A DNA stretch of 64,000 nt from Christensenellales bacterium (GTDB lineage Bacteria > Bacillota > Clostridia > Christensenellales > UBA1242): the NCBI GenBank assembly GCA_051883495.1, contig JBJETV010000022.1:35118-99117 (forward strand), written 5' to 3'. The position numbers were made by a program, and so were the translations under genes. Below are positions 7,966 to 54,056 of this stretch, one piece after another. The first letter of the stretch is position 1. Every line of letters begins with the position of its first letter. The notes beneath the pieces are model-generated. The model saw only the letters and a list, made by a program, of their open reading frames with translations, made no database searches and was not told the DNA's origin.

Positions 7966-8042
7966 TTGCAAAGACAATTGCTATGTTCATTGTGAATAAT
8001 TTTTGTTCATTATGAACTCCGAAAGTTTGTTATTATCACAAG

Positions 8043-8070
8043 AAAGGGCCATTTGGCTCTTTTTTGTTTT
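8043..8070 (+). terminator. intrinsic terminator after hup
   Basis: Stem AAAGGGCC (8043-8050) / GGCTCTTT (8055-8062) with one G.T wobble, loop ATTT, then a T-rich tail TTTTTGTTTT. Confidence 0.5.
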
Positions 8071-8436
8071 ATGTAGATAATTCTCAAAAATAGCAATATA
8101 AGTGCTTCGTGTAATTTATCTTCAAATAGAAATTAGTATAATTTCTTGTGGTAAACGAGTAAAAGTCAGTATCCATTTATTTTGTTTTTATTTATTTCTA
8201 CTTCAAAAATTAACTTTCTTTTTTTTCAACTTACAGTAGTTTCTTTTTGAATTATAGCAGTAAATTTATCTTATGCTAAAATTTTCTTTAGTTTTATTTT
8301 ACAAAAGTTTTTATTTTTTTTCTTTTATATAAATACATCTATTTTTTTTGAAAAATTTTTATGTAATTTTTCGCATTTTCTTGGAGGGTAGGTAAAAGAT
8401 TTTGTAGTTTTTTTGTCAAAATTTGGTGTAATTTAT

Positions 8437-8465
8437 TTGGTAAAAATGGAAGATACTATTATAAT
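8437..8465 (+). promoter_or_regulatory. candidate sigma-A promoter of giant gene 1 (TTGGTA-N17-TATAAT)
   Basis: TTGGTA at 8437-8442, TATAAT at 8460-8465. This implies a leader of ~125 nt. The AT-rich context makes false positives likely. Confidence 0.3.
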
Positions 8466-8597
8466 AAGATTGTAGTATTATATTCTTTATCTTATTATGC
8501 AACTTTACTTGAGGAATAAGTGGTCGGTTGATTATTCTTGCAATGTATGAAATTTTTGCAAGGTAATCGGTTGATAGGTCTAAAAGGAGTTATCCAA

Positions 8598-17661: not shown

Positions 17662-17690
17662 TTGTTAAATTTTGGCCCATAATATATAAT
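17662..17690 (+). promoter_or_regulatory. candidate sigma-A promoter of giant gene 2 (TTGTTA-N17-TATAAT)
   Basis: TTGTTA at 17662-17667, 17-nt spacer, TATAAT at 17685-17690. Confidence 0.4.
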
Positions 17691-17785
17691 ATAATCATAG
17701 TTGTAATAAGATTGTCGCATTGTGCATTTTTTTGGATAGCAATCTTAGCCAACAATTTAGTGGCATATGCCAAGAGGTTATGATT

Positions 17786-20700
17786 ATGAAAAATTTGAGC
17801 CGAAAATTTATGCAAGTTGTCTGTTCGTCGCTATTGGGTGTGGTGGCGATTATGGGCGGGATAATGTTGTCCCCAAATTTTTTTGCACGTCAAAAGGCAT
17901 ATGCGACTATTGAAAGCTCGCAATCACAAGACTCCATGCTTGGTGTAACGCAAGAAGAGATTATTCTTAATGAAACTTCTGGAGCATCGTTGTTGCTTAA
18001 TGCAATAAATTCAATGACCAATGAAAGTAAAATTAAATTTGAAAACGGTTATTATGCTAGCAATGATGCTAGTAAGGCTTACTCTTTTGTCTTTGAAAGA
18101 GATGTAACCGAATCAGACATTGATAGTTGGGGAAATAAGTTTGCCTTTGATGGCTTTACATTCAAAGCAAGTCAATCTTTCAGTGGAACAAATCCAATGC
18201 TTACAATTTCAGGTCTACAAAAAGTAGCATTTAGGAATTGCTCTTTTGTAGGCAATGGCAAAGTCGAAGGCATATCCTTTGTGAATTGTGAAAATGTATC
18301 TTTTGAAAATTGTTCCTTTGTAGATTTTAGTGGCAAATCAATTTTTTCTACAACAACTAGAGACAACACAACAATTACATTCTCTGGCGAAAATTATTTT
18401 GCAAACAATGTTTCAAACAATGGTTCAATACTTTCTTTCGAAACAGCAAATGTTTATTTTAATATAATGCCTGATGGGAGCAATTTTGTTATTCCTTCCA
18501 ATACATTATTTGAAGAAAACATTGCAACGAATTTAATAAATGTTTCTGGCGGAAGTATTAAGGCAATAAATATGACTTTTGCTAACAACACAGGTAGAAT
18601 TTTTTACATAAGTGGTTCCATTGTCGACTTGCAAGATAGTGAATTTTCTAACAACAGTAACTGTGTGGATAATGTTATAAAAATTGCAGGACAGCAAGGC
18701 AATTTGATGATGAGCAACCTAAAATTTGTAAACAATACAATCGTAAAAAAAGAAATAAAAAGTTTGCCTGCAGTGATTTCTATCGGTCTAGGGGGTGTAA
18801 CAACTGGATTAATTGGCAATATCAATATCGACAACCCAACGACTTTTGACAATGTTGTGGTTGCTGGAGATGATAAAGACACTGGTAGCAGTTTTAATAT
18901 AGTTGGTTGTGATATAACTGGTGGAGGAAGTGCTTTTAGTTTTGATAAGGTTCAAAGTGTAAAATTTATCAAAGAAACTGAAGAGACCGTATCAGATTAC
19001 AGTGTTATTGCAAATGGTTGTTCTGGCAATATAATTGAAGTAACGGAATGTAAAACCCTTGTCTTAAAAGAGGGTAACCTTGGTTGGTTGGATACTACAG
19101 AAACAATATCTCGTGGTATTTATCTCAAAGATACTGATAGTGCGACAATCGATAATGTAACTGTTTACAACTGCAATGCAGGAGAAGAAGATGGTGGTGC
19201 TATCTACTCCAAAAACAGTGTTTTATCACTAAACAATGTAAAATTGATAGGCAACAAGGCAAGAAATGGTGGTGCTATCGCAGTTAATGGTGGCAGTGTT
19301 ACATTGTCAAACAGTGTCTTGGAATCCAATGGTGCATTTTCTAGTGCATCTGGAAGTGAATTAAGTGGTTGTGGAGGCGCAATATATGTAAACACGGCAA
19401 CACTTAATATCACGGCAACATCTAAAGAGGGAGAAGGTGTAAACAAAGATGAAAAAATAATTTTCAAAAACAATAGTGCGACAAACGGTGGTGCAATTTA
19501 TTTAACTCAAGAAGCAAACTTTTCTCAAGAAGTTTTTGTCAATGAATACGTTTGCCCAATAATTTTTGAATCAAACACTTCATCCAATAACGGCGGAGCA
19601 ATATATTCCAATGCAATATTAAATATCAAAGATTCTTCATTTGTTGGTGGTGGTGCTGGCGGAAATGGTGGTGCGTTGTATATAGATGCAACAGACAAGC
19701 AATTCAATTTGGAACAATGTGATTTTCAAGATTTATATGCGGTGGACGGCGGTGCAATTTATGTAAATATTGCTGGCAAGGTAGAAATTCTCGGCGGAAG
19801 CAAAGGAAATAAATTCCTTTCTTGCAATGCAACAGGTGAGGGGATTATTTACATAGCCAAAGCAAAAAGTATCAATATGGAAAGCACAGAGTTGTCTGGT
19901 GCAAACATTACAGGTATTGCGTCAAACGGAATAGTTGTATTCAAATCTTCCGCAGATACTCAAGAAAATACTTTCAGTTGCGATATCAACGTCAAAGATT
20001 TAACGATAAAAGACTACACAACATCCTCCAAAGGTGCAGTGGTAGTGGATTATCAAGGCTATGCCAGCACTGTGGCAATCTTCGATGGAATTGTTGTGTC
20101 CAACGTTTATGCTCAAGGGGAAAGTTCTCTTGGTGGTGCAATGAGTTTTGAGGGTAATGTAAAGGCAACTATATATGACGGAGAGTTTACCTCAAACTAT
20201 GCAGACAATGGCGGTGTGGTGTATGCAAATGGTGCAAATGTAACAATGGAAAATTTAGAATTTTTGTCAAATTGCACACAACAAAGCGCCTCTTTGAATA
20301 GGGACATAAATGGTGCAATCTTGTATGCAAACAACAGTAATATTTCCATTAAAAACGCAACAATCACTGGCACTGTTTTGGCTGTAAATAGCAGTCTTAT
20401 CACCCTAGACGGCAGTGGGGAAGGAAATCTTGACTCTATAGAATTTGTCAACAATACTTGCTACTCTCAATATTCCTCATCAAATGATAGTTTTGGGTTG
20501 AAAATAAGCAAAGAAATAAGATTTTCTCTTTCAAACGGAAGGTTTGTTGCCAATACATTTGCAAAAGATATTCTGCAATTTGCTGACGATATGAATTATA
20601 AAATTTCGGACACTCTGTTTGAGGCAAACGAAATAAAATCTAGCACAGTAAATGGTGTTTTGAAAGTAACCAATCCTAATAATATCATACAAAATTGTGT

Positions 20701-23700
20701 ATTTAGAGATAACGCAGTAAATGGCGATTGTGCAGGTATATTTATCTCCGGAAAGGGATATTCTTACACTATCGCAGGATGCCAGTTTGAGTCTTGCAAA
20801 GGTTCTAGCGGTAGCGCAGTGCGTGTAGATTCTAGGAATTCTGACGTAAAACTCACTTTGGATGGTTGCGTGTTTACAAACAATTCCAGTTCTGACGGAA
20901 CAGTTTATTCCACAAAAGAATTGACAGTAAAAAATTGTCAGTTTATAAATAATACTTCCACTGCCAATGCTGGTGCAATAAGGGCAGAGGTGCTTACAGT
21001 GGTCAGTTCTACATTCCGAGGCAACACAGCCAGTGGAAATGGTGGTGCAATTTTCGTCAGTTCGTCTTCTTCTCAAGCATTGAGAATACTCGACGGCAAA
21101 ACTGAATTTTTGGAAAACACCTCTTCAAACGGTGGTGCAATATATATCTCCAAAAATACAGGAGCAATACTCTCAGGTTGCTCTTTTGTAGGCAATCAAG
21201 CAACAAATGATGGTGGTGCAATATACAACCTTGGTAGCCTGGTTGCAGAAGGGGTATCTTTTAGCAAAAACATCTCTACAAATCAGACAGAATCTCGTGG
21301 TGGAACAATCTTCTCTCAAGGCAATTTGAGCCTGTCGGATATAGAAACTTTTGAGGGCGACAACACCAAAAAAATAGCCAATGGTGGTGCAATTTATCTT
21401 ACATCAGAGAGTTTGACAAAGTATTCGTTCTACATAAACAATGTAAAATTTGGCAATTTTAAGGCAGTAAATGGTGGTGTGTTGTATATGGACAATGGCT
21501 ACCTAAAATTGAACAATTGTTCCTTTGGCTCTACTGCTGATGACATAATAAATTCTGCCACTTCAAAAGGTGGAGTGCTGTATATCAACAGTGCAAAATC
21601 TAGCGTAGATGTATTTGATTGCCAATTCCAAAATGCAACAGCAGGAAGTGGGGCATTTATTTACACAGAGGGCAATTCTTCAACAGGCGATATTATTACA
21701 TTCAACTCAACAACATTTAGCAACGCAACAGACTCTGCATTGTATCTTATCGGTGGCAAAATTTATCTGCATGATGTAGAAGTGTCTTCTTCCAGTGTAG
21801 CAAACATTATACTGAAGGGTGCGTATCTTTATCTTTCAGGGCTTATAAGTATTTATGACAGTGGCGAAAATAAGATAAATGTTAAACATGAAAGCGGTTA
21901 TATTATCCTCATCGGACCAATGTCAAAAGGTTCAAAAGTTGGTCTTACTGCTGATACAAATAAAAGGTTAGTCCAAGGTCAAAGCCTATCTCAAAATCAA
22001 TACTTTATGAATTCTGGAGATGCACAATGTTTCGTTCCAGATAGCAATTCTAACATTGCTTTAAGTTTTTCCTTTACAAGTGGTGTTGAAACTGGTGCAA
22101 TTTACTCCACATTGATAAGTAGTACATCTACTACTATTGTCGTGTCGGACTTCAGAGATTCTGTCAATTTCTTTGAAGGAAATCTTGAAGAATTGCCATA
22201 TTCACTGGTGCAAGTGTATAAAAATGGTGTAAAACTAGACTACACACTTTCTGATAGCGGTTGCAAGTTTGGAGATAAAATAACCTATGAATTTACTTCT
22301 TATGACGACAACTCTCATGCTTCAGTGGAAGATTTTCCAACAGACAAAGTAAAGGAATCTGCAAGAAGTTATTATCTTGTAAATGAGCTGGTTGACCAGG
22401 ATACAAATACAAGGACACAAAAAAACACAGTAATCGAACTCACTGCCGAGGGACAACTGACAATAGAAAAATTGCCTCAAGTTGATGATTTGTTTGTGGG
22501 ACATGCTTTGAGTACAGCTCATTTGACGCAAGGCAGAGCAGAATTTGGTGGAAATGCCATCGCAGGAACATTCAGTTGGAAAGATGGCACAAAGACTGCA
22601 AGAACAACCGCTGGTTACCAGTTGTTTACTGTTGTGTTTACTCCAACCAATACCAATTTGTTCGCCCCAGTGGAATTTGAAATGCTGGTTAAGGTGAATG
22701 GCTATGACGAACTAACATACAAGGAAGGTGGCTTCTTCCGTGGCGAAAGTAATGTGGGAACATCTTTGTCCGACATTATCAGCAAGATGAGTGACGGTGG
22801 AGTAATTTATCTTGAAAAATCAATAGAAAATGAATCAATTTCTGTGGACAACAAGACCGTCAAATTTGTTAGAGCAAATGGTTTTAATGGCACTATGTTT
22901 GTAAATTCCACCTTGGGCTCAAAAAATATGACAGGCAACATCATAATTGACGGTGCAGGAGATAGTTTTGTTACAGACGAAGTAAACGCTGACCCAGCAA
23001 ATATTGTTTTGATAAATTCCGGTTCTAGATCAATATACAGTGGAGTAACTATCCAAAATCACAATGGAACAGACTCTGCCGTTGCAGTGAAAGGTGGGGC
23101 CACACTTACAATTTATGGTGGAGAAATTCTGGACTGCGTTACAACTGGCAATGGAGGTGCATTGTCGGTGGTGGACAATTCTACTATAACAATTTATGAT
23201 GTTACTATCAGAAACTGCTCGGCTAAACTTGGTGGTGGATTGTATGTAGATAGCAATGCAAATGTAACAATCTATGACGCAGAGATTTTAGAATGTTCTG
23301 CTGTAAATGGTGGTGGATTGTACTGCAAAGGGGACAAAATAACGATAAGCAATATAAGCATTGTATCCAACAAGGCAATTTACGAAGAAGCAGTGATTGA
23401 CTCTGGACTTGGTGGTGGCTTATATTTTGAAAAAGTGCCAACAATTTATCAAGCAGAGATAAAATATAATTTCGCTAAACTAGGTGGTGGTGTTTATATT
23501 GCAAGTTGCGATAGCCAATTTGGTCTTGGTCGTGTGGGAGCAATATCTGTGTATGGCAACTCTGCAGTGCAAAATGGTGGTGGCATATATGCAAAAACCA
23601 GTTTTATTGCCAATGGTTTGTCTGTTTCACAGAATATGGTAACAAATAGTGGTGGCTTTGGTGGTGGGTTGTATATAGAATTAAATGAAGCAGATACAAC

Positions 23701-38700: not shown

Positions 38701-41700
38701 AGATGCAACATCAAATTGCAGAATTATGTTGAATAATTATGTGCAAAAGGTAACTATTGATGACGATATTACAGCCTTCAAGTTTAATGCAAGCGCAACA
38801 TACACAGGTGATGTGATTATTCCAAACTTTGTCCTAAGCCTCCTTGTAGGTGATAGCAGAGTAACATTGCAAAAACGTGCAACTATTAATGCCAGCGGGG
38901 ATTATTATGTAGGCGTGCTTGACGGATGTGTAGATGTAAATTCTATCAATGTGTTGTATGCCACAGGATATGGCAACTACTCTGGCACAGCATACTTTAC
39001 ATTTGACATCTCTCCTATGGAAATTTCGTCTATTCTAGAGGGAGTGAGCATTGCAGATGTGGAATACACTGGCTCTGAAGTCAGATTGGAAAACTTGATA
39101 TTTAAGGGAGCAGATGGCAGTGTTGGGTTGAAAAACAAAAACAATACACTTTCCCTTGGCACAGACTACACATTGAATTATGACGGCTCGCAAGATAAGA
39201 TAAATGTAGGCACCAAGACAATAGTAATCGTAGGCAGAAATAACTATAGTTCGAGCAGTGTTAGCAAATTGACATTCAATATTGTTCCAAGAGATATGTC
39301 GCTTTATCCAGAAGAATTTGAGTTCAAGTTGACCTCTGAAAAGCAATATCAAGGCAAAAATGAATCAACAACACTATCTGCAGGAGATTTTGTATTGAAG
39401 TTCGTTTGTGGCACTCATCAAGAAACATTAGTCTTGTTTGACAATCAAACAGGCCTAGGCAACTTTACAATAAAGAGTTACGCAAACAACACCAACGCAG
39501 GCACTGCTACTGTGGTGTTTGAAGCCATTGGCAACTCAAACTTTGCAGGCAGTGTGGCAAAACAATTTGTAATCAGTCCAAAAGATGTGTCATCAAGTGA
39601 TGATATCTTGATAGAATTGCCAACTCCAACCAGCAAGATAGGTTCGTTGTATTTGTATAGGTATAACATGGGAGAAACCAAGCCACAACTCACCATTTCG
39701 GACAATGGAGAAAGTTTGGTCGCAGAAGAAGATTACGAAGTGATATACTCCAACTGCCAGAGAATTTCTCATGATATCTATGGCAATATGACATCTAGCA
39801 ATATGCCAACCGCCACTGTCATATTCAAAGGCAATTATGTTGGCAACCTTTCCAAAACTTATGGAATAGCAAAAATAGCCCTTACGGCAGAGGATGTGTC
39901 TTATCAGTTCCCACAACTTGTCTATACAGGTAGCGAGATTAAGATTTCGCCACTGATGATCAAAATGCAACTGAAAGAAACTTCTTATAGCAAGAGTTAT
40001 GTCTTTACAGTCAACGACTTTGCACTTGCTACAGGAGGATATTTCGAAGCAACTGGCGAAAATATCAACGCAACAGCATTAGACGGCTTGGGCAACTTTA
40101 CTAGCGAAAACAAAGGCAAGGTAAAGATTAAATTTACCGGAAGTGCCAGCAATGTTTTCGCAGGGGAGTTTGAGTTGGAGTTCAATATTGAAAGAAGGAA
40201 TATCTCCGATGCAACATTTGACCGAAACTTCTTTACTTCCGAAATATATTCAGGCACATACATTGGCAAAGATTATCCAGTAACATTTGCACAACAAACT
40301 TTGGAATTGGATAGAGATTATACCTTGGCATACAGAAACAACAAAGATGTTGGCTTGGCAACAGTTGTTGTGAGTGCAGTGGCTGGCAGTGGGGCACACA
40401 ACTTTACTGGATCATCTGAGATAACATTTAATATTTCACCAAAAGATATCTCCAGCGAAGATATTACATTTGATGTTAATGATTCTCCTACATACAACTA
40501 TGGCTCTGCAATAGAAGTTGCATCAAACAAACTTTCTGTTGTTATGCCAGTGGGTGGAGGTTCTTATAACCTAAAATATGTTTCGTCAACTTCGGGCGAC
40601 TTTGAGATTGTCCGTTATGAAAATAACATTAATGCCGGCATAGCAACCATTTGGATAAAAGGTATAGGCAACTTTACTGGCGAAAAATCAAGTAACTTTG
40701 TGATATCGCCAGTGGCTATTAGCAATGTAATTGTCAAAAACAATACTGTTGCAGGTGTAAGAAGTGAATCCTTTACTGGCAAGCAGGTAGAATTGGACGA
40801 TAGGACAGCAGACGAAATGTCTTCTACAGGTTCTTACTTTGAAGTAGTAGTTAATGGCAAAGAAGTCTTGAGAATATACAATTCTTTCAATTCCGCACTA
40901 TATGGATATGTGGAGAGTTATCAAGATAATATTCATGTAGGCACAGCAACTGTCAACTTCAAATTGTCCAGCAACTTCTACGACAGCATGCAGAATATCA
41001 CTTTCCAAATCAATCCAAAGAAATATGTCGAAAGTGAATTTGTCATTCCAAATATTCGTGACCAAGTAAAATCTGCCACTCCATCAACTCCAATCTTCAC
41101 CACAGATTATTGTGATGGCTTGCTAAAATTCCGTTATATTGACCAAATGGGCAACGAGGAATGGCTAGAACTCCCAGAATATTCCGATTTGGGTGTCGCC
41201 AACTACACATTGTCTTATATCAACAACAACGATTATGGCATAGCAACAGTAACAATAAGATTTGAAGGTGATTTTGACGGATTGGCATACACGCAGTTTG
41301 TAATTATCAAAGCCTACTCTCCAACAGATGTAACCGTTACTGTAACTAAAGATGGAAATACAACTATTGCATACACAAGAGGACTGGCTCTAGACGACTT
41401 AACATTGTATGCCTCCACTCTTGCCACAGGTGCAAAGTTACAATGGCTAAACGGTAGCGAAAAAATTGCTTCTGTCGGATTGCAATCTTATTCCGCATAC
41501 TACAACGAAAACCCAGAAGAATATTCAGACGTAATAATTCAAGTAGAATTTATGGTGGAACAAGGAACATTTACCGAACAAGATAAGCAAAATATAAGAG
41601 AAAGAGTCTATTCTGACAAAAATTCAGAATTATTTGGCGATTATTCCACTCTTTATCGTGTGCCATACTTCTTTGGACTTGTGCTGGAGAATGTAACTCT

Positions 41701-43996
41701 TCCTATAGGTTATGTTTGGAAGGAAGGACAATCAGACAAATTCTTTACCAATGCAGATAAGATTACCAATGCAACAGAACCAGGTCTAGGAGAACCTTGC
41801 AAAACATATTTGCTCACAGCTACTTATGTGGGCGAAGAAAGTTTGTTTGGCACATATGACTTAACAGTTAAGGTTTGTGTGGTTCGTGGTTCGCTGAACC
41901 TAGATAACTTTGCAAAGACATTCTATATCAACTACTCTCCAGATATTTATTACAAAGACCTTACATTCTTCAACCAAACATCTTGGCCTTGGAGTATAAA
42001 ACAAGATGGATTGTATCTTGAAGGCTGGAATGAAAAAATAGTTGCCACCAGCGAAGGTGTGGTGCTAGATATGATTTACAACCCACAACGAGCAATAGAT
42101 GGCAAAGCCCTCAAAGATGGTGGATTCCTGACTGCAGTGTATGGAAACAAGCAAAACTACAACTCGGTTACAACCACTGCGACTATCTATGTGGTGCAAG
42201 GTAAATATGACAGGGAAGAAGTGCTCACTGCAGAAGTATTGGCAGAGTTGGATATATTGCAAAACACATCTTACAAGGCTGGCAAAGACCTTGATATCCA
42301 AACACTCAACATAACTTTGCCACAAGGATTTAGTTTCAAAACACCAGAGCAAAAGATTTATATTGGAAGCAACACTGTAGAAATAATCTATCATGGCAAA
42401 GTTCTTGACGAAAATGGTCAACTTGTAGATGATCCAAACTATCAAACATATGGCGAAAGTTTGGCAGAAAGAATGACAATCACTATCAATCTTGTTGCTC
42501 CAAGCTACACATATTTCCTCACAGAAGATGGCTCACAAGATACACTGATAACTTTGCCAAATGGCGAAAGAGCAGTGCTCAGACAAAATGGCGACAGTCT
42601 TAATATCAATGGCAATGGCGTAGCAGTGTATATGGAATATTGGGACGTCTATCGTTCGGAACTAATACAAGTGATGGGCAATGCAGAGTGGCTAAACACA
42701 GCAGAACATCCAAGCGACCAAATTCTTCTATTAGTAAATGGCTCCGTTTATACAAAACAAGTGGAGTTTAGGTTCGACAGTGAATGGAGAGGAATTATTG
42801 ACCAACAAAACAGTATGATATTATCCATTAGTGTCAAGTTGGAGCAAATAAATATAGACAATCCAAATGCTGTAGTTACTTTCCCAGTGGGAGAGGAAGA
42901 TGATGAGGCAGAACAAATTTTGAGTTATCAAAATGTTCCAACATTGACAAGACTTAATGGTGTTCAATTCTCGGAGGAATTCCTTGCACAATATGGTGAA
43001 GGTATTGATGTAAAAGATGTCTTCTACGAATATGAATTGTGGCAACTAGACACACAAGGCAACCCACATCAAATGATTGGTTCTAGGAAGGAATTGCTCT
43101 CCACAGATGTTCTTGATGCCCATGGAGATTTCGACGAATATACATATTTCTACAAAGTATATGCAGTGTTTACTCGTGGCTCTTGCAACAACTTCAACTT
43201 TGGCGATTACCAGCCTTCTACTTGGCTTAAGATATATCGTTCCAATGTTACATTTGAGATAGAAAATGATGTAGAAGTAATTTACGGCGACATTGACCCA
43301 ATGAACACTGGCATAGTAGTTTTGGGCATAGAAAACCTAAACAAAGGTGAATATACTTTGGGTGTGTTTGACAAAAATAACAACAGAGTTTCGCTTGATG
43401 CACAAACTAATGCTGGAGAATATACAATAAAATTCTTCCTCAATCAGTCAAAACTAGACAAACTAACTGGCAATTATATCTTTGACAGTGCGTTTGAACA
43501 AAATGACTATACTTTGACCAAAAAGTTTACTGTATTGCAGAAAGAAATTACAGGTTATACTTTGGCAGTGGATGGTGTATTAAGGCAAACAGGTGCAAGG
43601 CTCAACGACAAGATTTCTGTGCTGTTTGATATGAGTCAATTTGTTGGTGGCGTTTTGCCAGACTATACACTGGTATTCCGCAAGAACGGAAGTATTGTTA
43701 GCAGTGTTATAGAGCAAGGCGACTATGAGGTGGAGGTTGTATTTAATGGTGACAATTATCATGCAACCGAAGTTCTAAGATTTACAGTGTTGCCACCAGA
43801 CGGAATGCAAACTCTTGTCATCGTTGCCATAGCCTTGGGTGTCGTTGCCTTGGGTGGATTGGGAGTTTTCGTAAGTGTGCGTATCAGCAGACGCAATATG
43901 CGAAAGACTATCCAAAAGCAACAAATGAAAAGAATTAAGAAAGAACTTAAATCTTTGTCAGAAAAAAAGGCAGACGACATAAAGAATAAACAATAA
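17786..43996 (+). CDS. giant surface protein 2 (8,736 aa, 26.2-kb ORF): signal peptide, four beta-helix supermodules, ~14.7 kb of MBG/Ig-like repeats, C-terminal TM anchor and basic tail
   Basis: The ORF is uninterrupted. SD AAGAGG lies 8 nt before the ATG at 17786. Signal MKNLSRKFMQVVCSSLLGVVAIMGGIMLSPNFFARQKAYA. FKNNSATNGGAIY, FESNTSSNNGGAIY, FLENTSSNGGAIY and similar. C-terminus LVIVAIALGVVALGGLGVFVSVRISRRNMRK... Confidence 0.9.
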   Translation: MKNLSRKFMQVVCSSLLGVVAIMGGIMLSPNFFARQKAYATIESSQSQDSMLGVTQEEIILNETSGASLLLNAINSMTNESKIKFENGYYASNDASKAYSFVFERDVTESDIDSWGNKFAFDGFTFKASQSFSGTNPMLTISGLQKVAFRNCSFVGNGKVEGISFVNCENVSFENCSFVDFSGKSIFSTTTRDNTTITFSGENYFANNVSNNGSILSFETANVYFNIMPDGSNFVIPSNTLFEENIATNLINVSGGSIKAINMTFANNTGRIFYISGSIVDLQDSEFSNNSNCVDNVIKIAGQQGNLMMSNLKFVNNTIVKKEIKSLPAVISIGLGGVTTGLIGNINIDNPTTFDNVVVAGDDKDTGSSFNIVGCDITGGGSAFSFDKVQSVKFIKETEETVSDYSVIANGCSGNIIEVTECKTLVLKEGNLGWLDTTETISRGIYLKDTDSATIDNVTVYNCNAGEEDGGAIYSKNSVLSLNNVKLIGNKARNGGAIAVNGGSVTLSNSVLESNGAFSSASGSELSGCGGAIYVNTATLNITATSKEGEGVNKDEKIIFKNNSATNGGAIYLTQEANFSQEVFVNEYVCPIIFESNTSSNNGGAIYSNAILNIKDSSFVGGGAGGNGGALYIDATDKQFNLEQCDFQDLYAVDGGAIYVNIAGKVEILGGSKGNKFLSCNATGEGIIYIAKAKSINMESTELSGANITGIASNGIVVFKSSADTQENTFSCDINVKDLTIKDYTTSSKGAVVVDYQGYASTVAIFDGIVVSNVYAQGESSLGGAMSFEGNVKATIYDGEFTSNYADNGGVVYANGANVTMENLEFLSNCTQQSASLNRDINGAILYANNSNISIKNATITGTVLAVNSSLITLDGSGEGNLDSIEFVNNTCYSQYSSSNDSFGLKISKEIRFSLSNGRFVANTFAKDILQFADDMNYKISDTLFEANEIKSSTVNGVLKVTNPNNIIQNCVFRDNAVNGDCAGIFISGKGYSYTIAGCQFESCKGSSGSAVRVDSRNSDVKLTLDGCVFTNNSSSDGTVYSTKELTVKNCQFINNTSTANAGAIRAEVLTVVSSTFRGNTASGNGGAIFVSSSSSQALRILDGKTEFLENTSSNGGAIYISKNTGAILSGCSFVGNQATNDGGAIYNLGSLVAEGVSFSKNISTNQTESRGGTIFSQGNLSLSDIETFEGDNTKKIANGGAIYLTSESLTKYSFYINNVKFGNFKAVNGGVLYMDNGYLKLNNCSFGSTADDIINSATSKGGVLYINSAKSSVDVFDCQFQNATAGSGAFIYTEGNSSTGDIITFNSTTFSNATDSALYLIGGKIYLHDVEVSSSSVANIILKGAYLYLSGLISIYDSGENKINVKHESGYIILIGPMSKGSKVGLTADTNKRLVQGQSLSQNQYFMNSGDAQCFVPDSNSNIALSFSFTSGVETGAIYSTLISSTSTTIVVSDFRDSVNFFEGNLEELPYSLVQVYKNGVKLDYTLSDSGCKFGDKITYEFTSYDDNSHASVEDFPTDKVKESARSYYLVNELVDQDTNTRTQKNTVIELTAEGQLTIEKLPQVDDLFVGHALSTAHLTQGRAEFGGNAIAGTFSWKDGTKTARTTAGYQLFTVVFTPTNTNLFAPVEFEMLVKVNGYDELTYKEGGFFRGESNVGTSLSDIISKMSDGGVIYLEKSIENESISVDNKTVKFVRANGFNGTMFVNSTLGSKNMTGNIIIDGAGDSFVTDEVNADPANIVLINSGSRSIYSGVTIQNHNGTDSAVAVKGGATLTIYGGEILDCVTTGNGGALSVVDNSTITIYDVTIRNCSAKLGGGLYVDSNANVTIYDAEILECSAVNGGGLYCKGDKITISNISIVSNKAIYEEAVIDSGLGGGLYFEKVPTIYQAEIKYNFAKLGGGVYIASCDSQFGLGRVGAISVYGNSAVQNGGGIYAKTSFIANGLSVSQNMVTNSGGFGGGLYIELNEADTTKQSTLSNCEFVGNIVNAGCGSAIYAYNLILNNVQVVNNGIENGSSTILGGAIYTARSLNLLNSYVSSNYAQGNPSSELGLDVKSAGLSGFDVVDSELNISNSTIANNNIYNTSGGAISANTGSQIWMQVGTGSSGGIIIADSLIQANNNEEVAINYNKMSSDKLYSKVNIVLSGKVQILGKLTVVRKDEGGEAKSESNLTLKNLSADSTVNPALDNNSNGSIIATIEGTVLKAEDYTKIFVSLGKKLKIQNDVSTTLAVDNESGSYDNKVINSSQKFDKADRNNVLSRVNVYPLNSYASDNLVMYEVYQGVVVNVTDVIADTKYGNSAEKRAILFVNYGTLIIDNLTLTAGSREGYYAIENYGTMIISASEFISAPICNEGYIEINNGTIIRNTSLTPAITNKGTVVINSGSFHGNTSGVIENLVEDAYVEINDGIFYNNASNGSVVDLQYGSAIINGGTFEHNVVQLDGTTSSLGGVIKVASGTTLQVFGGTFESNSACFGSAIYSEGNVEIYDGLFVSNFTYASDDFNGAGGAIFAKDSKVAIYGGMFEGNNGLTGGAIGAYNAIIDIFDGAKFAGNYISNVGQKGYSLGEVSFLKIIQLGAVLYAGGTSEINIFGGDFVQNGRGNGYGTVYVGDDCLLEISSGNFYENNVNAGGALYLAGSSTTTIIGGAFSNNNVSGSDGCAIYNGATLNLFGGAIYNNSDCANILSLGGTTTISGGVKIYNNTSTSSKNIISVTGSLTMNGGLISGNSADNCIVYINEGSSAKVEISGGQITGNKSKNGAVSGVTDKLTIKNTPYIFNNTNESGTKSLNVNIKCDDSSKKAYPIQLSGDLMVGSAVGIFANILPTSLDYIKAVSNSTGSINTKNLQYFSSDVNSYKLFASSQDSSFFENGKTYPFGDSSHFMFGKSNKKIDTNVFDYIASDYYGQYDGAYHSISLDFVDSNDANKYDIFYYQSSTSNLKDSDLTNVIWTSSFEPILSGKSYVYFRFNSKSDSSKTSAIDCRSILISAKEVEVVKTPTLQTTIYYNANEPLSKSYLDSWLVGGKVVDKKNHDITVGGRFEWGESSTLFNKIGINKCTVRFVPDENTYSAYSSITCTIDVFVYARELYYNGEFYVDDTFTTKLGDENVISNDNKGSDGNVIYYHNDMGSAFGALTIGGKIYVNETYIVNTTSETTWERTTDRITITRFAGFTGAIIKATDSAKLTISGAITIDGGAVWTINTSSPSSNNPYYLNDLNKPYNSGIQATSSMIEVDTNATLNIGNGAILENAENINNGGAITNHGTTFISNSTIQKNMAKNGGAIANDGALSISGDTRIQYNLANIKDKVAGDIYGYGGAIFQQNKGEAVAEATFAVTKSIISYNKSQTYGGAIAVLAGSVLFDASVSGDETEISNNNSSSATAIYSCSMVRVVGIKLFNNNLISGTSGNNISIMLVGQGERMTLDSGKQSSTTTGGSSSESTPPMIEISGQVVLVRENSSIENGESPYIRQKSMVSDNSNITVYLTAKSDSGLTVVTDIGRVLVVIENGANEEVYKAYAGNKIAIITTHKEVSDIFAPKMPDSSEPAVNTSEWKLVENGGEVEILILKSKDSTLPTDYENNQGNEDFTNNEWVRITTTYGNTYSVNIDGEDHRKISYTEKGEKLQRFDRAGQSIKEFDYVDEVEFGLKDLDTQVRIGRNIYALWTLADPIFYVQGTILDEHDNPIGDDFDASAGCSVPYGNKIKLEINILNKEEKYNYSYRWVYYDTSTTHETQRDFINPTITDQPDKLVIKHAFAYRIGVTVTVNGQGTNDEKPQERRTPIFFDNIRITPAQVELSLSNNKFTYTHNIINPIYSDGTAKTVTDDSEYNLRISKLNNDTAETPESLALPYNETICNNIMPIGTVLDKNSGENTNALNSNDYLVNIQQGIAASGGIGNKDTDNCDYFGTQDYVLINNTNKLWSITQLKLNVTKWVYAQQIGENQFKIVGDYTNAIQNISGYTFVVLPVFDNIGEDNVRFKLTTNYTNALGEHISKDIIIKYNGYTNGDVVVLENIEGSEVKADNLGYVGDVGTFTTTITDVNDYHKDENDIGDGNNNYSWSDIAKTWAITRTQAVIQNWIIGYVDGSFTGYSYTSLEGTDGNKFIQLNDTYFDSATNSVVVPDDFFYQKDGKLAVGATFINCANGMGAEIVDKLKITLSVNGRLNNGSILEQSFTYLVNLNNKGVIKSDNKSYIELFNPDVVGSVTQAGVYTITATIVQEDSEFDMASAYSYTLTVVVNRQVLQEKDNWIGSWGEAFNVYSGRYDGQQKTMTIEGVNDYTYNTYKAVENLELEEGYYTDILYYINNGDRVEKVYDAGVYITFASLPVIESYNFMLDKEYNIWTVYPRTLTVDTSNSNRQYTGALQTYEPTVSNIILGEDDREILSFSEGFRGADINETGDPYTGVITIISSNYTFGLNGVYVNTQTVNWRIIRKQLTVKWLFHYGDAKDPTAVESSGESVAVEKVYDGKTFYPVIQLSGFVTVDGTYCDHVTPSVLYYRDGNSTAIGGTFIKDSGKYYTLTSDALTGEHSMYYSLSTEVAERRITWEITKKEINIVWNETPLVYDSTTRTFGATIPSDQLCEGDNVSNFVLDFDGEYSAKGVGNYTATATIRINSDTGITNYVISSETSQKLWSILPKEVSLKFETGNSIIYDGKAHANSATIETGIFTGDNIKIVPKYYNGYNASGEPISDGSTIKNVGKYSVKFELYNADNTECKNYLVENGDISNWDIVQRKLEIDWKDRDGNIVTSLSNYQRTYNSNATTAYYVYYTINDLLEGSEQITVRFGEMGTSNNRTISLGLANVLTGQADFTNSGYFINAGSYFVEIVSIADSSGKSNFAMPDNNRFTVTVNPAQIDINRILDDNHDFDGDDWCVARFYDEAGASKNAPQYDGTEKTVYIKIKDLSGKELEVNVDYKVENSKKTNAGSYDAIVTLINRNYALGVLYVTDGENVFVQRTSVNVRWAIKARPVTFVWPENTEFEFTGSDISITVQEIQGVITRDGVKDSVGVASYYKDGNTTNVAKDITTEGYIARVKDLNNSNYTVNESVNSSVNWKIIKRKLAVNWSINNNNSVIDKTGDIWSVQFANAPRYFEPTFTNLIGGAIENPTLSAQYSAKSGSVYENILPSGIVNVGAYRCSIAISDSDYYSLEDIFGVGYFEWTISRKSVRPDWANLSLVYSASSLRPTLSLSGVFDNSIDTTSVSLIFYDSDNKVLSVAPSNVGVYGVQVDKLAFERSYSNYQILEEDNNIVSWKITKRSVSFTEYKNNGATMTYDGNAHYYFGANKDGDAGLDLISKSASMTDSQYSAILSDMNSNLFLVPVLSYVDNDGTLHVVANDFTIDSGVDANVIRANIMGLYNRCINAGVYTLSFVLYDRNGISNNYALGVSQDSYNWTINRLVATFNWLGEGDDWKVDGSTGVPYIVYDKVEHSFSATVANKVGEDDVRVGSYTDSTATNAGNYTARVTSLRGDQANNYQVDSSKAYALWTIAKRGVSITWDTGILTSSSSGLSATYSGEEIACKPTISVMEGDNVSAKVTLTSSGNPVDRAINAGTYTATVDGLNGDMSIGNYTLESIASSDKTRTWTINPKEITISFPSSGFTVDEGNRKVSTTYTGAEIAFKIDFVGVVYKDINYLLPHYQYIYVTDNVDSSSQIIRENRESNTTALLKNVNEKKEDWQNVTITLVSPDNPIIAGNYRLKSGEGSCKFVITQKRISIISWQIGSNAYNDNNPVVNAYTFDGTSKLPTPVVSGLGSETTSPLAYSYKYSKSESFLEVDSPYWQEIDESYLTHAGKFMITAKLNGKLAENNYTLDSSSLNNFRYETSKYTPTITVVPLKMGDLKVGATAEEKTTEVLVVVNSANKTLVLGAENSYVRPYGSVTLKNGSNVLNSQTLSVKDKATDGTFDKYKSYDLFKLLVIDNDDDNNFMFAVFTYTETIDAQYHPTISFAPNTNDITNDYDYASISDMEVDSNAFIPQNKAQTNPVAMYYAVGYGESVRYLKISDNLSLVDETGSALVYGNKITLYVLGGEKLDENSFGIKLYGRTEAIMSNLSASETSKEVNGIVCSISIAKMDTPDGFHTFYSNYYNGLGESEKAKNASLDAGGYVKVEITLLSTGTTYIYGYKQGGYKTVGEETTSFGEALSPKAKVVVEKKNIVLNTPDAMVNFGENNVQFIKDGSAIPYNYYSIIGTSYPSSAIGTESDWRRVDIFADSGILESDKNDIESRITPVVDNISSLNPGKNAGAVRISFVHDNYNITSYAGAVWVLSQVVESEDVQVRFKYKYVYDTTAKTILDNDVVVYVKGNLFVDYHITEIKDNISAGTAKIYIAIGVDPTGVPKASAYTSGKNGDTPISFEKTFTIDALNLDQTAYKQLGTTELYYGVMNKSLVFGDSLTTDETYTGGEIRKSLSNQIYIQNGSSGTDVAYIDTANLDYSHSANINAGVATLTITGKNNLTGRKVLTFRINPKTITTDDIGNYELSLIDGSVTGKQFVYNGGAIKPVINYIKLKDSEKTLSFDANYSYLMGDKSSIINYNGNPVDVGSYCIQVVITGDYPTRNYTGTVYLAYEIVKMSIQDNNFVTINVNDSSLVYTGYNLSPVITVMRNGKAYDSNTKEFLWQNNIAITSDFNFSYNAEHKNAGIHEVTITAKEGTNFSGSVTKTFNIQQRSLGDVSFNINSQTFTGTKITPARDNIKATLGSYILIADDYDYVSLGENINVVYNSSGVAVYGGTITASGKGNFSGSVNVQFVITPLEVTQENSNMFVVTLDKDTFEYSGEEIRPNIEAISFVVGASSYPLAMSNWTSKDLEYFNNINVPLNVSASPTIRITLSRNFTGTLDKTFEILPKEMKDGLFFVVDQTEDLQDTMTAISLNLSSTTYTGAVQNKAVALYQKFVLEDGSVEYRRIATINEGNNNLPNFKLDFVSRIIDNPTESDYAINVGSAFVKVTGQNNYSGSIYSYFNIDPLDIQSALDKWINEGEDATSNCRIMLNNYVQKVTIDDDITAFKFNASATYTGDVIIPNFVLSLLVGDSRVTLQKRATINASGDYYVGVLDGCVDVNSINVLYATGYGNYSGTAYFTFDISPMEISSILEGVSIADVEYTGSEVRLENLIFKGADGSVGLKNKNNTLSLGTDYTLNYDGSQDKINVGTKTIVIVGRNNYSSSSVSKLTFNIVPRDMSLYPEEFEFKLTSEKQYQGKNESTTLSAGDFVLKFVCGTHQETLVLFDNQTGLGNFTIKSYANNTNAGTATVVFEAIGNSNFAGSVAKQFVISPKDVSSSDDILIELPTPTSKIGSLYLYRYNMGETKPQLTISDNGESLVAEEDYEVIYSNCQRISHDIYGNMTSSNMPTATVIFKGNYVGNLSKTYGIAKIALTAEDVSYQFPQLVYTGSEIKISPLMIKMQLKETSYSKSYVFTVNDFALATGGYFEATGENINATALDGLGNFTSENKGKVKIKFTGSASNVFAGEFELEFNIERRNISDATFDRNFFTSEIYSGTYIGKDYPVTFAQQTLELDRDYTLAYRNNKDVGLATVVVSAVAGSGAHNFTGSSEITFNISPKDISSEDITFDVNDSPTYNYGSAIEVASNKLSVVMPVGGGSYNLKYVSSTSGDFEIVRYENNINAGIATIWIKGIGNFTGEKSSNFVISPVAISNVIVKNNTVAGVRSESFTGKQVELDDRTADEMSSTGSYFEVVVNGKEVLRIYNSFNSALYGYVESYQDNIHVGTATVNFKLSSNFYDSMQNITFQINPKKYVESEFVIPNIRDQVKSATPSTPIFTTDYCDGLLKFRYIDQMGNEEWLELPEYSDLGVANYTLSYINNNDYGIATVTIRFEGDFDGLAYTQFVIIKAYSPTDVTVTVTKDGNTTIAYTRGLALDDLTLYASTLATGAKLQWLNGSEKIASVGLQSYSAYYNENPEEYSDVIIQVEFMVEQGTFTEQDKQNIRERVYSDKNSELFGDYSTLYRVPYFFGLVLENVTLPIGYVWKEGQSDKFFTNADKITNATEPGLGEPCKTYLLTATYVGEESLFGTYDLTVKVCVVRGSLNLDNFAKTFYINYSPDIYYKDLTFFNQTSWPWSIKQDGLYLEGWNEKIVATSEGVVLDMIYNPQRAIDGKALKDGGFLTAVYGNKQNYNSVTTTATIYVVQGKYDREEVLTAEVLAELDILQNTSYKAGKDLDIQTLNITLPQGFSFKTPEQKIYIGSNTVEIIYHGKVLDENGQLVDDPNYQTYGESLAERMTITINLVAPSYTYFLTEDGSQDTLITLPNGERAVLRQNGDSLNINGNGVAVYMEYWDVYRSELIQVMGNAEWLNTAEHPSDQILLLVNGSVYTKQVEFRFDSEWRGIIDQQNSMILSISVKLEQINIDNPNAVVTFPVGEEDDEAEQILSYQNVPTLTRLNGVQFSEEFLAQYGEGIDVKDVFYEYELWQLDTQGNPHQMIGSRKELLSTDVLDAHGDFDEYTYFYKVYAVFTRGSCNNFNFGDYQPSTWLKIYRSNVTFEIENDVEVIYGDIDPMNTGIVVLGIENLNKGEYTLGVFDKNNNRVSLDAQTNAGEYTIKFFLNQSKLDKLTGNYIFDSAFEQNDYTLTKKFTVLQKEITGYTLAVDGVLRQTGARLNDKISVLFDMSQFVGGVLPDYTLVFRKNGSIVSSVIEQGDYEVEVVFNGDNYHATEVLRFTVLPPDGMQTLVIVAIALGVVALGGLGVFVSVRISRRNMRKTIQKQQMKRIKKELKSLSEKKADDIKNKQ
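18150..28300 (+). other. region of giant gene 2 encoding four parallel beta-helix (PbH1/Pmp-like) modules separated by Ig-like 'G(T/R)F-x-W' domains (boundaries approximate)
   Basis: Helix blocks at ~18.15-21.8, 22.9-24.4, 24.7-26.25 and 27.2-28.3 kb. Ig-like segments GTFSWKDGTKTARTTAGYQLFTVVFTP (~22.56-22.70 kb) and GGRFEWGESSTLFNKIGINKCTVRFVP (~26.88-27.02 kb). Confidence 0.55.
29128..43800 (+). repeat. protein-level tandem array of diverged ~95-110-aa MBG/Ig-like repeats inside giant gene 2 (boundaries approximate)
   Basis: Recurrent unit boundaries include NY...W-x-I-x-(K/R)-(K/R)-x-(L/V)-x-(V/I) (WRIIRKQLTVKW, WEITKKEINIVW, WSILPKEVSLKF, WKITKRSVSF). Later ones follow GxxNFSGS...F-x-I-x-P-x-x-(I/V) followed by YTG-x-EI-x-P. 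I saw no long identical DNA repeats. Confidence 0.65.
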
Positions 43997-44002: not shown

Positions 44003-44031
44003 ATGGGAGAATTAACTTTCTCCCATTTTTT
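44003..44031 (+). terminator. strong intrinsic terminator directly after giant gene 2
   Basis: Perfect 9-bp stem ATGGGAGAA (44003-44011) / TTCTCCCAT (44018-44026), loop ttaact, then T6. Confidence 0.75.
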
Positions 44032-44060: not shown

Positions 44061-44089
44061 TTGACAAATCACCACCGAGGATATATAAT
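44061..44089 (+). promoter_or_regulatory. consensus sigma-A promoter of the GLUG-repeat gene (TTGACA-N17-TATAAT)
   Basis: TTGACA at 44061-44066, exactly 17 nt of spacer, TATAAT at 44084-44089. GGAGGG SD at 44103-44108. Confidence 0.6.
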
Positions 44090-53197: not shown

Positions 53198-53289
53198 TTT
53201 TCACCAAAAATATTATATCATATTTTGTAAAATTTGTTAAACACTTCAAAGTATTTTCCTTTTTTTTACAAATTGTGTATAATAATAGT

Positions 53290-54054: not shown

Positions 54055-54056
54055 AA

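Follow-up and report, generated by a model that had tools for sequence, protein, structure and literature searches.

How long can a single bacterial gene run without interruption, and what kind of protein would it encode? This question is raised by an ORF in a 64-kb window (the whole stretch of DNA that we analyzed) from an uncultured Clostridia bacterium of the animal gut, a relative of "Christensenella sp. UBA7862." To our knowledge, the surface biology of Christensenellales-like gut Clostridia, the group to which this organism belongs, is essentially unstudied.

A single gene of 26.2 kb

A first-pass annotation, made from the letters of the DNA, had called one 26.2-kb ORF of about 8,736 aa, with the Shine-Dalgarno sequence AAGAGG at 8-nt spacing, a promoter-like site farther upstream, and a terminator with a perfect 9-bp stem downstream. 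We found the plus-strand frame to be open from 17720 to 43996. Read from the ATG at 17786 to the stop at 43996, the coding sequence comprises 26,211 nt with no internal stops, and the window contains no N. The protein computed from the translation has a mass of 951 kDa and a pI of 4.6. The Shine-Dalgarno sequence lies where it had been called, as does the terminator-like hairpin, which reads ATGGGAGAA-TTAACT-TTCTCCCAT at 44003-44026 and is followed by TTTTT (Table 1). The promoter-like site is also present, but it constitutes weak evidence because the AT-rich intergenic region yields many such matches (10 found versus 2.8 expected). Scans of the window for tRNAs and Rfam families found nothing.

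TABLE 1 Coordinates in the window of the giant gene, its flanking signals, and the parts of its product
Feature	Residues (aa)	Nucleotides	Strand	Basis or description
Promoter-like site TTGTTA-17-TATAAT		17662..17690	+	10/12 positions match
Shine-Dalgarno AAGAGG		17772..17777	+	8 nt 5' of ATG, read directly from sequence
Giant CDS	8,736 aa + stop	17786..43996	+	Colinear open orthologues, dN/dS ~0.2
Signal-like leader	1-40	17786..17905	+	Basic n-region, hydrophobic aa 8-34, AYA before putative cleavage site
Beta-helix module 1	~41-1380	17906..21925	+	PMP-type repeats; Beta_helix, Chlam_PMP, and TIGR01376 above threshold; self-hits; GGA motifs
Beta-helix module 2	~1701-2110	22886..24115	+	Self-similarity; nine GGA[IVL]-type motifs
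Beta-helix module 3	~2291-2790	24656..26155	+	Self-similarity, GGA motifs; TIGR01376 POMP_repeat 17.2 bits versus cut-off 15
Beta-helix module 4	~3101-3360	27086..27865	+	Self-similarity to modules 1-3; five GGA motifs
Region i	3361-3980	27866..29725	+	No family match (Pfam, NCBIfam, PDB profile search)
Repeat zone A	~3981-5815	29726..35230	+	~17 copies of an ~85-aa domain, distantly MBG/YDG-like, predicted Ig-like
Region ii	5816-6388	35231..36949	+	Unmatched by repeat profile
Repeat zone B	~6389-7745	36950..41020	+	~14 copies of 'YTG..I.P...DY.V.Y.NN..G.A.V.I.G.GNY.G..F.I'
Region iii	7746-8517	41021..43336	+	Conserved, predicted membrane-proximal module, rare in public data
Last two MBG-like domains	8518-8670	43337..43795	+	HMM iteration; pLDDT ~80-86, most confident part of C-terminal AF2 model
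C-terminal transmembrane helix	8671-8698	43796..43879	+	Kyte-Doolittle; helical in AF2 model; conserved in orthologues
38-aa basic tail, predicted cytoplasmic, RISRRNMRKTIQKQQMKRIKKELKSLS...		43880..43993	+	10 K, 5 R; motif conserved
Intrinsic-terminator-like hairpin		44003..44031	+	9-bp stem, 6-nt loop, then T run

Do orthologues of similar length exist, as the first-pass annotation had asked? In an independent assembly, a contig of ERZ808245 that belongs to the same organism as Christensenella sp. UBA7862 carries a colinear frame open for at least 8,153 aa (52.7% identity to aa 631-8734). A contig of SAMEA3663025 carries 3,936 colinear open aa (73.5% identity to aa 569-4507), and the orthologous frame is open for at least 5,072 aa in Christensenella sp. 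UBA7862 itself and over 2,794 aa in a further contig (L002). All of these comparisons begin at aa ~570 or later, as the first ~570 aa of the orthologues lie outside the retrieved flanks. The colinear open frame is kept in three species-level lineages, the dN/dS is ~0.2 (0.14 to 0.25 along the first 4,500 codons), and the GC content of the giant gene equals that of its neighbors.

These observations bear on whether the ORF might be an artefact of assembly, chimeric, or a decaying pseudogene still open by chance. The assembly behind the window is of the metagenome type, genes with repeats are easily mis-assembled, and one related contig (L001) has the gene in two pieces. However, what separates the pieces in L001 is a run of N, and this is the sole break among the related contigs. 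The internal repeats are mutually only 20 to 35% identical, as judged by self-similarity, and therefore cannot be confused by an assembler, so that the gene is neither collapsed nor expanded. A chimera or frameshift had been named beforehand as what to look for; what we found were colinear open orthologues in independent assemblies, with the dN/dS given above. The probability of an artefact is negligible in our view, and we conclude that the ORF is a genuine single gene. A gene for an ~1-MDa protein that is intact across species in metagenome assemblies is also a useful benchmark for gene callers and protein databases. A search of proteins with the N-terminal 1,200 aa returned no close orthologue; the matches were beta-helix proteins, none of them above 35% identity. 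Collections searched with both termini returned short fragments only and no full-length protein. Given this lack of full-length matches, the collections seem to be without proteins of this size, so absence from them is not evidence.

Conservation varies along the protein. Identity to the ERZ808245 orthologue is highest in the C-terminal third (59 to 75%), intermediate in the beta-helix part (37 to 64%), and lowest in the middle (33 to 49% at aa 3400-4800). The idea that sequence change simply increases toward the distal tip was rejected, since the least conserved part is the middle.

Beta-helix modules and a predicted stalk of Ig-like repeats

The first-pass annotation had proposed four Pmp-type beta-helix modules followed by about 4,900 aa of MBG/Ig-like repeats. 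The four modules were borne out by self-similarity, by clusters of GGA motifs, and by Pfam and NCBIfam matches to PMP and Beta_helix models. These PMP-repeat right-handed beta-helices (~3,300 aa) lie between aa ~100 and 3360, with inter-helix linkers of ~800 aa in all. Matches exceed the cut-offs for PF13229 (52.5 versus 25.9 bits), PF02415 (39.5 versus 20.6 bits), and TIGR01376 (34 versus 15 bits), and 35 of 37 GGA[IVL]-type motifs fall into four clusters within aa 255-3344. Module 4 has no Pfam match of its own. The Pfam matches of the second search tile, at aa ~980-1150, are part of module 1.

C-terminal to the beta-helices lies a stalk of ~5,300 aa, predicted to consist of small beta domains. 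Here HMM iteration picked out a repeat of ~85 aa in at least 33 copies. The copies in zone A carry the motif Y-x-G ... N-x-G-x-Y ... N-Y ... W-x-I; the zone B repeat is common to many Firmicutes surface proteins. A two-domain AF2 model is all-beta (pLDDT 74), and Foldseek matched it to tandem Ig-like domains in chitinase, InvE, Rib, cadherin, Hoc, and Sap, although TM-scores were low and no E-value was better than 1e-3. These data suggest that the repeat is an Ig-like beta-sandwich.

How close is this repeat to the MBG and YDG families? None of PF17883, PF18676, PF18887, and PF18657 reached its Pfam gathering score in any tile, the best being MBG_3 at 17.5 bits versus a cut-off of 25. When single copies were searched, 14 of 53 gave weak MBG/YDG matches (MBG_3, 6; YDG, 4; MBG, 2; MBG_2, 2; best E-value, 6e-5), and other families appeared among the 53 as singletons only, none recurring. 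MBG/YDG-type motifs (Y-D/T-G, A-G-x-Y, and N-Y) are visible in the repeat alignment. Searching the C-terminal 5,400 aa against Pfam (E-values up to 5) and NCBIfam gave one sub-threshold MBG_3 match and nothing else, and PDB profile searches with three 1,200-aa orthologue alignments gave nothing meaningful. In addition, the repeat profile leaves ~1,900 aa unmatched within the stalk (aa 3361-3980, 5816-6388, and 7746-8517). Thus, the long Ig-like repeat region of the first-pass annotation stands, but its resemblance to MBG/YDG is only distant, and the repeat profile does not cover the whole stalk.

The two ends of the protein

A Kyte-Doolittle scan of the whole protein revealed exactly two hydrophobic segments, aa 8-34 and aa 8671-8701, which agrees with the Sec-type signal and the single C-terminal hydrophobic helix (the sequence quoted then is aa 8677-8698) of the first-pass annotation. 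The N-terminal segment belongs to a Sec-type leader without a YSIRK motif. Its c-region is rather long, with the hydrophobic stretch of ~27 aa ending at least 6 residues before AYA. The leader would direct Sec export and would probably be cut after AYA.

At the other end, the helix may act as a stop-transfer anchor, and the Lys/Arg-rich tail, which is 38 aa long rather than the ~45 aa first given, would stay in the cytoplasm by the positive-inside rule. The helix and the tail motif (R-R/K-x-F/M-K/R-K-x-I/V-Q-K-Q/E-Q) are kept even in relatives at ~30% overall identity. With an N-terminal leader, one C-terminal transmembrane (TM) helix, and a basic tail, the type I topology proposed earlier, with the beta-helices at the tip, is likely. 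The term "tail-anchored" was wrong because the protein has an N-terminal signal; "C-terminally anchored type I" describes it better.

We also considered a sortase or other C-terminal sorting signal, as an LPPDG precedes the helix. This candidate was rejected: regular expressions for LPxT[GAS], NPxTG, LAxTG, NPQTN, LPxGA, and [SP]PxTG had no match in the whole protein, and NCBIfam and Pfam gave no match to a sorting or anchor domain.

Region iii, next to the last two MBG-like domains, is 65 to 75% identical in the orthologues; a set of 1.84 billion representative proteins contained only ~8 real relatives of it. AF2 gave a C-terminal model that is mostly beta but of low confidence (mean pLDDT 57), and Foldseek matched it to Ig-like arrays, including the neck of GhpA (E = 3.7e-10). 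One might speculate that, in this Clostridia lineage, the C-terminal ~1,000 aa (region iii, the two MBG-like domains, the TM helix, and the tail motif) are a cassette of a type not described before, by which giant surface fibrils are anchored or sorted, with the tail docking a cytoplasmic partner for placement, export, or signaling. We consider this proposal doubtful. Even so, cassette and tail motif would offer a concrete handle on how monoderms anchor very long fibrils without sortase.

Known relatives in kind and a proposed role

Is such a protein without precedent? The first-pass annotation did not recognize its domain order in any described adhesin family. A precedent exists in the adhesin-like proteins (ALPs) of methanogens: beta-helix repeats, then Ig-like repeats, and a TM-helix anchor make up the commonest architecture of these proteins in Methanobrevibacter and Methanosphaera (PMC11532034), and the giant protein shows the same combination of parts as these Methanobacteriales proteins. 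The ALPs of Methanobrevibacter smithii and Methanosphaera stadtmanae have beta-helix regions, some with Chlamydia_PMP repeats, ahead of tandem Ig-like "big" domains (PMC11532034), and they share with the giant protein a single TM-helix anchor with basic flanking residues and a gut habitat. Three Methanobrevibacter proteins (P0050, P0063, and P0080) were among the matches to the N-terminal 1,200 aa, with only local identities of 28 to 33% over 15 to 19% of the query, in the beta-helix part. The same search returned many bacterial proteins of 1 to 2 kaa that combine PF13229, PF02415, and Big_3_5, which are likewise a precedent for the domain order. However, ALPs come from archaea and mostly carry the anchor at the N terminus, whereas the giant protein is bacterial with a C-terminal anchor; the ALPs retrieved have ~1.9 to 2.0 kaa and usually a single beta-helix domain (PMC11532034), compared to 8,736 aa and four modules; and their Ig-like repeats are archaeal big domains (ABD), specific to archaea, whereas those of the giant protein would be MBG/YDG-like.

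In size and topology, the nearest proteins are Embp of Staphylococcus epidermidis and Ebh of Staphylococcus aureus. The first-pass annotation had called the size rare and named Ebh as the comparison; the comparison holds, and these proteins of the same ~1-MDa class show that the size has a match. In Embp (10,203 aa), an export signal is paired with a TM helix at the C terminus (PMC7587433). Like both proteins, the giant protein comes from a monoderm, is of ~1 MDa, and has an N-terminal export signal and, in place of a sortase signal, a predicted TM region at the C terminus (PMC7587433); all would share a very long rod of diverged repeats, a few hundred nanometers in length (estimated for the giant protein). 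The rods of Embp and Ebh, however, are alpha-helical bundles (FIVAR, GA, and DUF1542) behind a YSIRK signal, whereas that of the giant protein is predicted to be all-beta and Ig-like with a distal beta-helix; FIVAR, GA, and DUF1542 had no Pfam match in it, and its AF2 models are all or mostly beta.

Other likenesses are partial. Chlamydial Pmps have a beta-helical passenger with the same repeated GGA(I/L/V) and FxxN motifs (PF02415 and TIGR01376 are above threshold in the giant protein), but they are type V autotransporters with a C-terminal outer-membrane beta-barrel, and no autotransporter beta-barrel was matched by Pfam or NCBIfam in the C-terminal tiles, which end in one TM helix. Gram-positive fibrillar adhesins as a rule carry the adhesive part N-terminally and the anchor C-terminally (PMC8286594), and they resemble the giant protein in a putative N-terminal adhesive region, tandem stalk domains, a C-terminal anchor, and fast sequence evolution (PMC8286594, PMC9210967). 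Of the parts in the definition of Monzon and Bateman, the giant protein shows tandem stalk repeats and a C-terminal anchor, whereas an adhesive domain distal to the anchor is putative. Yet most fibrillar adhesins are LPXTG sortase-anchored and far shorter, and only ~20% of those without a known anchor have a TM helix (PMC8286594, PMC9210967). Giant1-5 of Apilactobacillus kunkeei are encoded, as here, by adjacent genes for extracellular proteins (3,000 to 8,000 aa) that combine a signal peptide and a beta-solenoid at the N terminus with a lengthy stretch of highly imperfect repeats, but their stalks are alpha-helical and attach through C-terminal DUF5776 or SH3b-like domains without a TM helix (PMC12863079). 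The grappling-hook protein GhpA of Aureispira (PDB 9flp), the best Foldseek match of the C-terminal model, is also a giant surface protein with a long Ig-like array; at a TM-score of ~0.1, ~10% identity, and in a different phylum, the likeness is one of fold type only. The giant protein is therefore an unusually large case of a known adhesin-like kind, with its domain order nearest the methanogen ALPs and its topology and size nearest Embp/Ebh. It leaves current concepts unchanged; that giant adhesins can carry a binding head on a stalk of repeats is already well established.

We propose that the product is probably a fibrillar adhesin-like surface protein of ~1 MDa, Sec-exported and membrane-anchored, whose adhesive role is suggested by analogy. 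Outside the membrane, the polypeptide would form a rod that begins with the conserved membrane-proximal cassette and continues with ~50 small Ig-like beta-sandwich domains, at least 33 of them detectable as one diverged repeat family. By a rough estimate, the extended rod would measure ~200 to 250 nm, and the stalk would hold the four beta-helix modules far past the wall. By analogy with Pmps, methanogen adhesin-like proteins, and other beta-helix surface proteins, these modules would be the ligand-binding part, binding glycans or surfaces of other cells, host mucus, or particles. If expressed, the protein would claim much of the cell's capacity for biosynthesis, and contact with the surroundings would be made mainly through it.

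Binding by the modules is an analogy and not a result because beta-helix domains can also be enzymes. Could the protein instead be a cell-bound enzyme carrier, with polysaccharide lyases or hydrolases of the pectate-lyase-like fold on a long tether degrading dietary or host glycans? The right-handed beta-helix of PF13229 is the fold of many glycan-active enzymes, and the host is a gut fermenter, as indicated by a nearby Fe-only hydrogenase gene and a related contig from pig gut. We regard this as very unlikely, however, since catalytic families (pectate lyase, glycosyl hydrolase 28, etc.) were unmatched in Pfam and NCBIfam, and what did match was only the adhesin-type PMP repeat and the generic model Beta_helix. 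The free distal end that the fibrillar adhesin-like model assumes may also be questioned. If the leader were an uncleaved signal-anchor, the 8,600-aa ectodomain would be a giant loop or hairpin on two TM helices; the length of the hydrophobic stretch and its distance from AYA would fit this, and membrane anchors at each end are described for 11 M. smithii ALPs that share these domain types (PMC11532034). Nevertheless, with its basic n-region, its hydrophobic core, and A-x-A ahead of a polar mature N terminus, the leader has the form of a classical substrate of SPase I, a gene for an S26 signal peptidase is close by, and Gram-positive fibrillar adhesins normally have a free distal end (PMC8286594), all of which render anchoring at both ends improbable.

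The neighboring genes also encode large surface proteins, and ~70% of the 64-kb window codes for very large ones, which suggests that proteins of this sort make up an entire surface layer. The giant protein could then be a structural coat or spacer rather than a specific adhesin, forming a thick fibrillar layer against phage, immune factors, or predators or setting the distance between cells, and the higher conservation of the stalk, compared to the middle and distal parts, would be consistent with this. On the other hand, the same architecture binds ligands in characterized Pmps, Embp, and fibrillar adhesins, and S-layer and SLH domains were not found by Pfam or NCBIfam. A purely structural role is thus unlikely, and the spacer and adhesin roles are in any case mutually compatible.

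Flocs, that is, cell-to-cell attachment, underlie the H2 syntrophy of Christensenellaceae with Methanobrevibacter. We speculate that a fibril of this kind, acting as an adhesin, might mediate such attachment; the ALPs of Methanobrevibacter itself follow the same plan of beta-helix plus Ig-like domains. The window itself is chromosomal in context, with housekeeping genes.

The giant gene and its conservation

The giant gene is real and is not a product of assembly. The ORF listing and translation confirmed the single 26.2-kb frame of about 8,736 aa claimed by the first-pass annotation: from its ATG, the gene spans 26,211 nt and its sole stop is the terminal one. N is absent from the whole window. 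The encoded protein (8,736 aa; 951 kDa; pI 4.6) has a high content of S, N, G, and T. Could the frame nevertheless be an assembly artefact? Its internal repeats share only 20 to 35% mutual identity in self-comparison and are old and diverged; repeats of this kind would not be collapsed or expanded by an assembler. GC content is uniform with that of the flanks. Colinear open orthologues were found in independent assemblies: L002 (MAG CM_BacUBA273.120; open for 2,794 aa until the contig end cuts the frame; 67% identity), L003 (Christensenella sp. UBA7862, 251-kb GTDB genome contig DLSM01000006.1; open for at least 5,072 aa, as far as the sequence examined extends; 56.6% identity over aa 3656-8734), L005 (SAMEA3663025; open for 3,936 aa with both edges open; 73.5% identity over aa 569-4507), and L006 (75-kb ENA contig ERZ808245 NODE-63; open for at least 8,153 aa; 52.7% identity over aa 631-8734). 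Over 5,072 aa, L003 matches L006 at 100% identity, so the two represent one organism in two collections rather than independent evidence; taken as one, the orthologues cover at least three species-level lineages. The sole apparent split of the gene, in related locus L001, lies at a run of N. The dN/dS ratio against L005 (Nei-Gojobori) was ∼0.21 overall and 0.14 to 0.25 per 1,000-codon block, and these low values in every block indicate that the whole frame is under purifying selection. The diverged repeats, the open orthologues, the N run, and the dN/dS ratio all contradict an artefact.

Searches of two protein collections recovered only fragments (P0001, 1,364 aa; P0094, 325 aa), and neither the giant protein nor a full-length orthologue. 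It seems that these collections lack very long proteins or contain them in pieces, so that such genes would be systematically under-represented.

The Shine-Dalgarno sequence, promoter-like site, and 9-bp-stem terminator noted in the first pass were all present. A perfect TTGACA-17-TATAAT stands ahead of the downstream gene, so the giant gene looks like a transcription unit of its own.

Features of the window and of the giant protein (window nucleotides unless marked aa)
Feature	Position	Strand	Remark
ORFs preceding S26 signal peptidase gene	3428-4054; 4092-5456		no family match
S26 signal peptidase gene	5535-6266	+
Gene for 2,974-aa protein	8538-17462	+	no Pfam match
Promoter-like site TTGTTA-17-TATAAT	17662-17690	+	10/12 positions match; AT-rich spacer gives many such matches
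ORF of giant gene	17720-43996	+
Shine-Dalgarno AAGAGG	17772-17777	+	8 nt 5' of ATG
Giant gene	17786-43996	+	from ATG
Beta-helix modules 1-4	aa ∼41-1380; 1701-2110; 2291-2790; 3101-3360		self-similarity
Repeat zone A	aa ∼3981-5815		iterated HMM
Repeat zone B	aa ∼6389-7745		iterated HMM
Region iii	aa 7746-8517
Last two repeat copies	just N-terminal of TM helix		iterated HMM
Hydrophobic segments	aa 8-34; 8671-8701		hydropathy scan; the only two
C-terminal tail	43880-43993 (aa 8699-8736)	+	38 aa, 15 K/R
Hairpin, 9-bp stem, then T run	44003-44031	+	immediately 3' of giant-gene stop
Perfect TTGACA-17-TATAAT	44061-44089	+	belongs to downstream gene
Gene for 1,087-aa protein	44114-47377	+	no Pfam match
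HAD hydrolase	53275-54054	+
Fe-only hydrogenase	54015-55259	+	overlaps HAD in a different frame
Third very large ORF	∼57938-64000	+	continues past window end
ORFs inside the third	58160-58663; 59334-59708	-	probably spurious

Domains of the giant protein

The four Pmp-type beta-helix modules proposed earlier were borne out by self-similarity, by the clustering of GGA[IVLMFA]-type motifs (35 of 37 inside the modules), and by matches above cut-off in the N-terminal third to Beta_helix (52.5 bits versus 25.9), Chlam_PMP (39.5 versus 20.6), and TIGR01376. The linkers between modules had no family match.

Over the C-terminal 5,300 aa, Pfam and NCBIfam gave almost nothing (one MBG_3 match, 17.5 bits versus a cut-off of 25), and PDB sequence profiles gave no match. 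An HMM iterated on the giant protein and its orthologues showed that aa 3983 to 8670 contain 33 copies of a single ∼85-aa repeat. The zone B unit, 'YTG..I.P...DY.V.Y.NN..G.A...G.GNY.G..F.I', is a tandem repeat of many Firmicutes surface proteins bearing CAP, SLH, or choline-binding domains. Searched singly, 14 of 53 repeat copies weakly matched MBG_3, YDG, MBG, or MBG_2, and other families never recurred, which points to a distant relationship rather than membership by Pfam's criterion. An AF2 model of two zone A repeats (45-row alignment; pLDDT 74) was all-beta, and its best PDB matches were tandem Ig-like domains (Moritella chitinase, InvE, Rib, cadherins, Hoc, and Sap; top E-value 1.4e-3, probability 0.99). 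Of the earlier reading as MBG/Ig-like repeats, the Ig-like fold is thus supported by the model, and MBG holds only as a distant likeness.

Region iii is among the best conserved parts of the protein and is rare, being shared by ∼8 proteins among 1.84 billion representatives; these relatives also carry the last MBG-like domains together with the TM helix and a tail motif, R-R/K-x-F/M-K/R-K-x-I/V-Q-K-Q/E-Q. The tail sequence RRNMRKxIQKQQMxRIKKELK is kept even in family members (P0095 to P0098) with only ∼30% overall identity, a degree of conservation that a simple positive-inside stop-transfer signal would not usually show. The tail is shorter than the ∼45 aa first counted. The AF2 model of aa 7746-8736 had low overall confidence (mean pLDDT 57) and was mostly beta, with the TM segment and tail as one continuous helix; it matched Ig-like, cadherin, and Fn3 arrays, the top match being the neck of the Aureispira grappling-hook protein. 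No sortase-type motif occurs anywhere in the giant protein. This rare and conserved anchor cassette at the C-terminus, together with its cytoplasmic tail motif, is the one element that appears poorly described.

Proposed surface topology and comparable known proteins

The gene and its conservation are established, as are the domain types of its product and the hydrophobic segment at either end. We propose that the protein would be exported by Sec and its leader cut after AYA, with the C-terminal helix serving as a stop-transfer anchor and the basic tail remaining cytoplasmic. About 50 Ig-like domains at ∼4 nm and ∼100 beta-helix coils at ∼0.48 nm would form a rod of ∼200 to 250 nm, placing the beta-helix modules, the presumed binding part, far outside the wall. 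We also considered a protein anchored at both ends, a structural coat, and a tethered enzyme.

The giant protein is a new, very large example of an already known kind. The first-pass topology and domain content were largely right, but the architecture, then unrecognised, is known: the order found here, beta-helix followed by Ig-like repeats and a TM helix, is the one most often seen in adhesin-like proteins of Methanobrevibacter and Methanosphaera (PMC11532034), and Methanobrevibacter proteins are among the matches to the N-terminus of the giant protein. Embp/Ebh are alike in topology and size class but differ in folds (PMC7587433). Chlamydial Pmps share the PMP repeats, whereas the giant protein has no autotransporter barrel. 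The general plan of Gram-positive fibrillar adhesins also fits (PMC8286594). UniProtKB holds >41,000 proteins above 5,000 aa, the bacterial ones mostly at the cell periphery (PMC11573180), and Apilactobacillus kunkeei carries arrays of adjacent giant surface-protein genes (PMC12863079).

Host and gene neighbourhood

The genes on either side are those of a chromosome (FtsH, S26 signal peptidase, DegV, MurC, SpoVG, PEBP, HAD, Fe-only hydrogenase, MetRS, and Dtd), and their order is kept in relatives. Named relatives are 'Clostridia bacterium' MAGs and Christensenella sp. UBA7862 (Christensenellales, NCBI taxonomy); a related pig-gut metagenome contig has a 96% identical MetRS. Against the organism of L002 and L007, identities were 96% for SpoVG, 93.5% for MetRS, and 78% for MurC, compared with 67% for the C-terminal third of the giant protein and 59% for the next large surface protein; the surface proteins thus evolve faster than core genes.

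Very large surface-protein genes crowd the window. The upstream 2,974-aa protein is a weak paralogue of the giant with an identical topology (hydrophobic leader, aa 37-57; beta-helix; C-terminal TM helix, aa 2938-2964; short basic tail), and its beta-helix repeats show weak similarity to the giant's modules. The downstream 1,087-aa protein has an N-terminal TM helix; its gene adjoins the giant gene in all related loci (L001, L002/L007, L003, and L010), where the protein is 68 to 92% identical. Of the third very large ORF, the window shows at least 2,020 aa, compared with ∼2,350 aa in relatives; because it continues past the window end, it is absent from the ORF listing. Its product starts with a leader of lipoprotein type (…MFMLSAC) and contains MBG-like motifs. 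Both large leader-bearing genes lie a few genes downstream of the S26 signal peptidase gene, which possibly encodes a dedicated processing enzyme.

The overlapping HAD and Fe-only hydrogenase ORFs are arranged alike in the window and L010 (13120-15092), and the gene calls of L007 (11786-13744) and L008 give a single 652-aa fusion protein; this difference between close relatives is one of gene fusion, fission, or frameshift.
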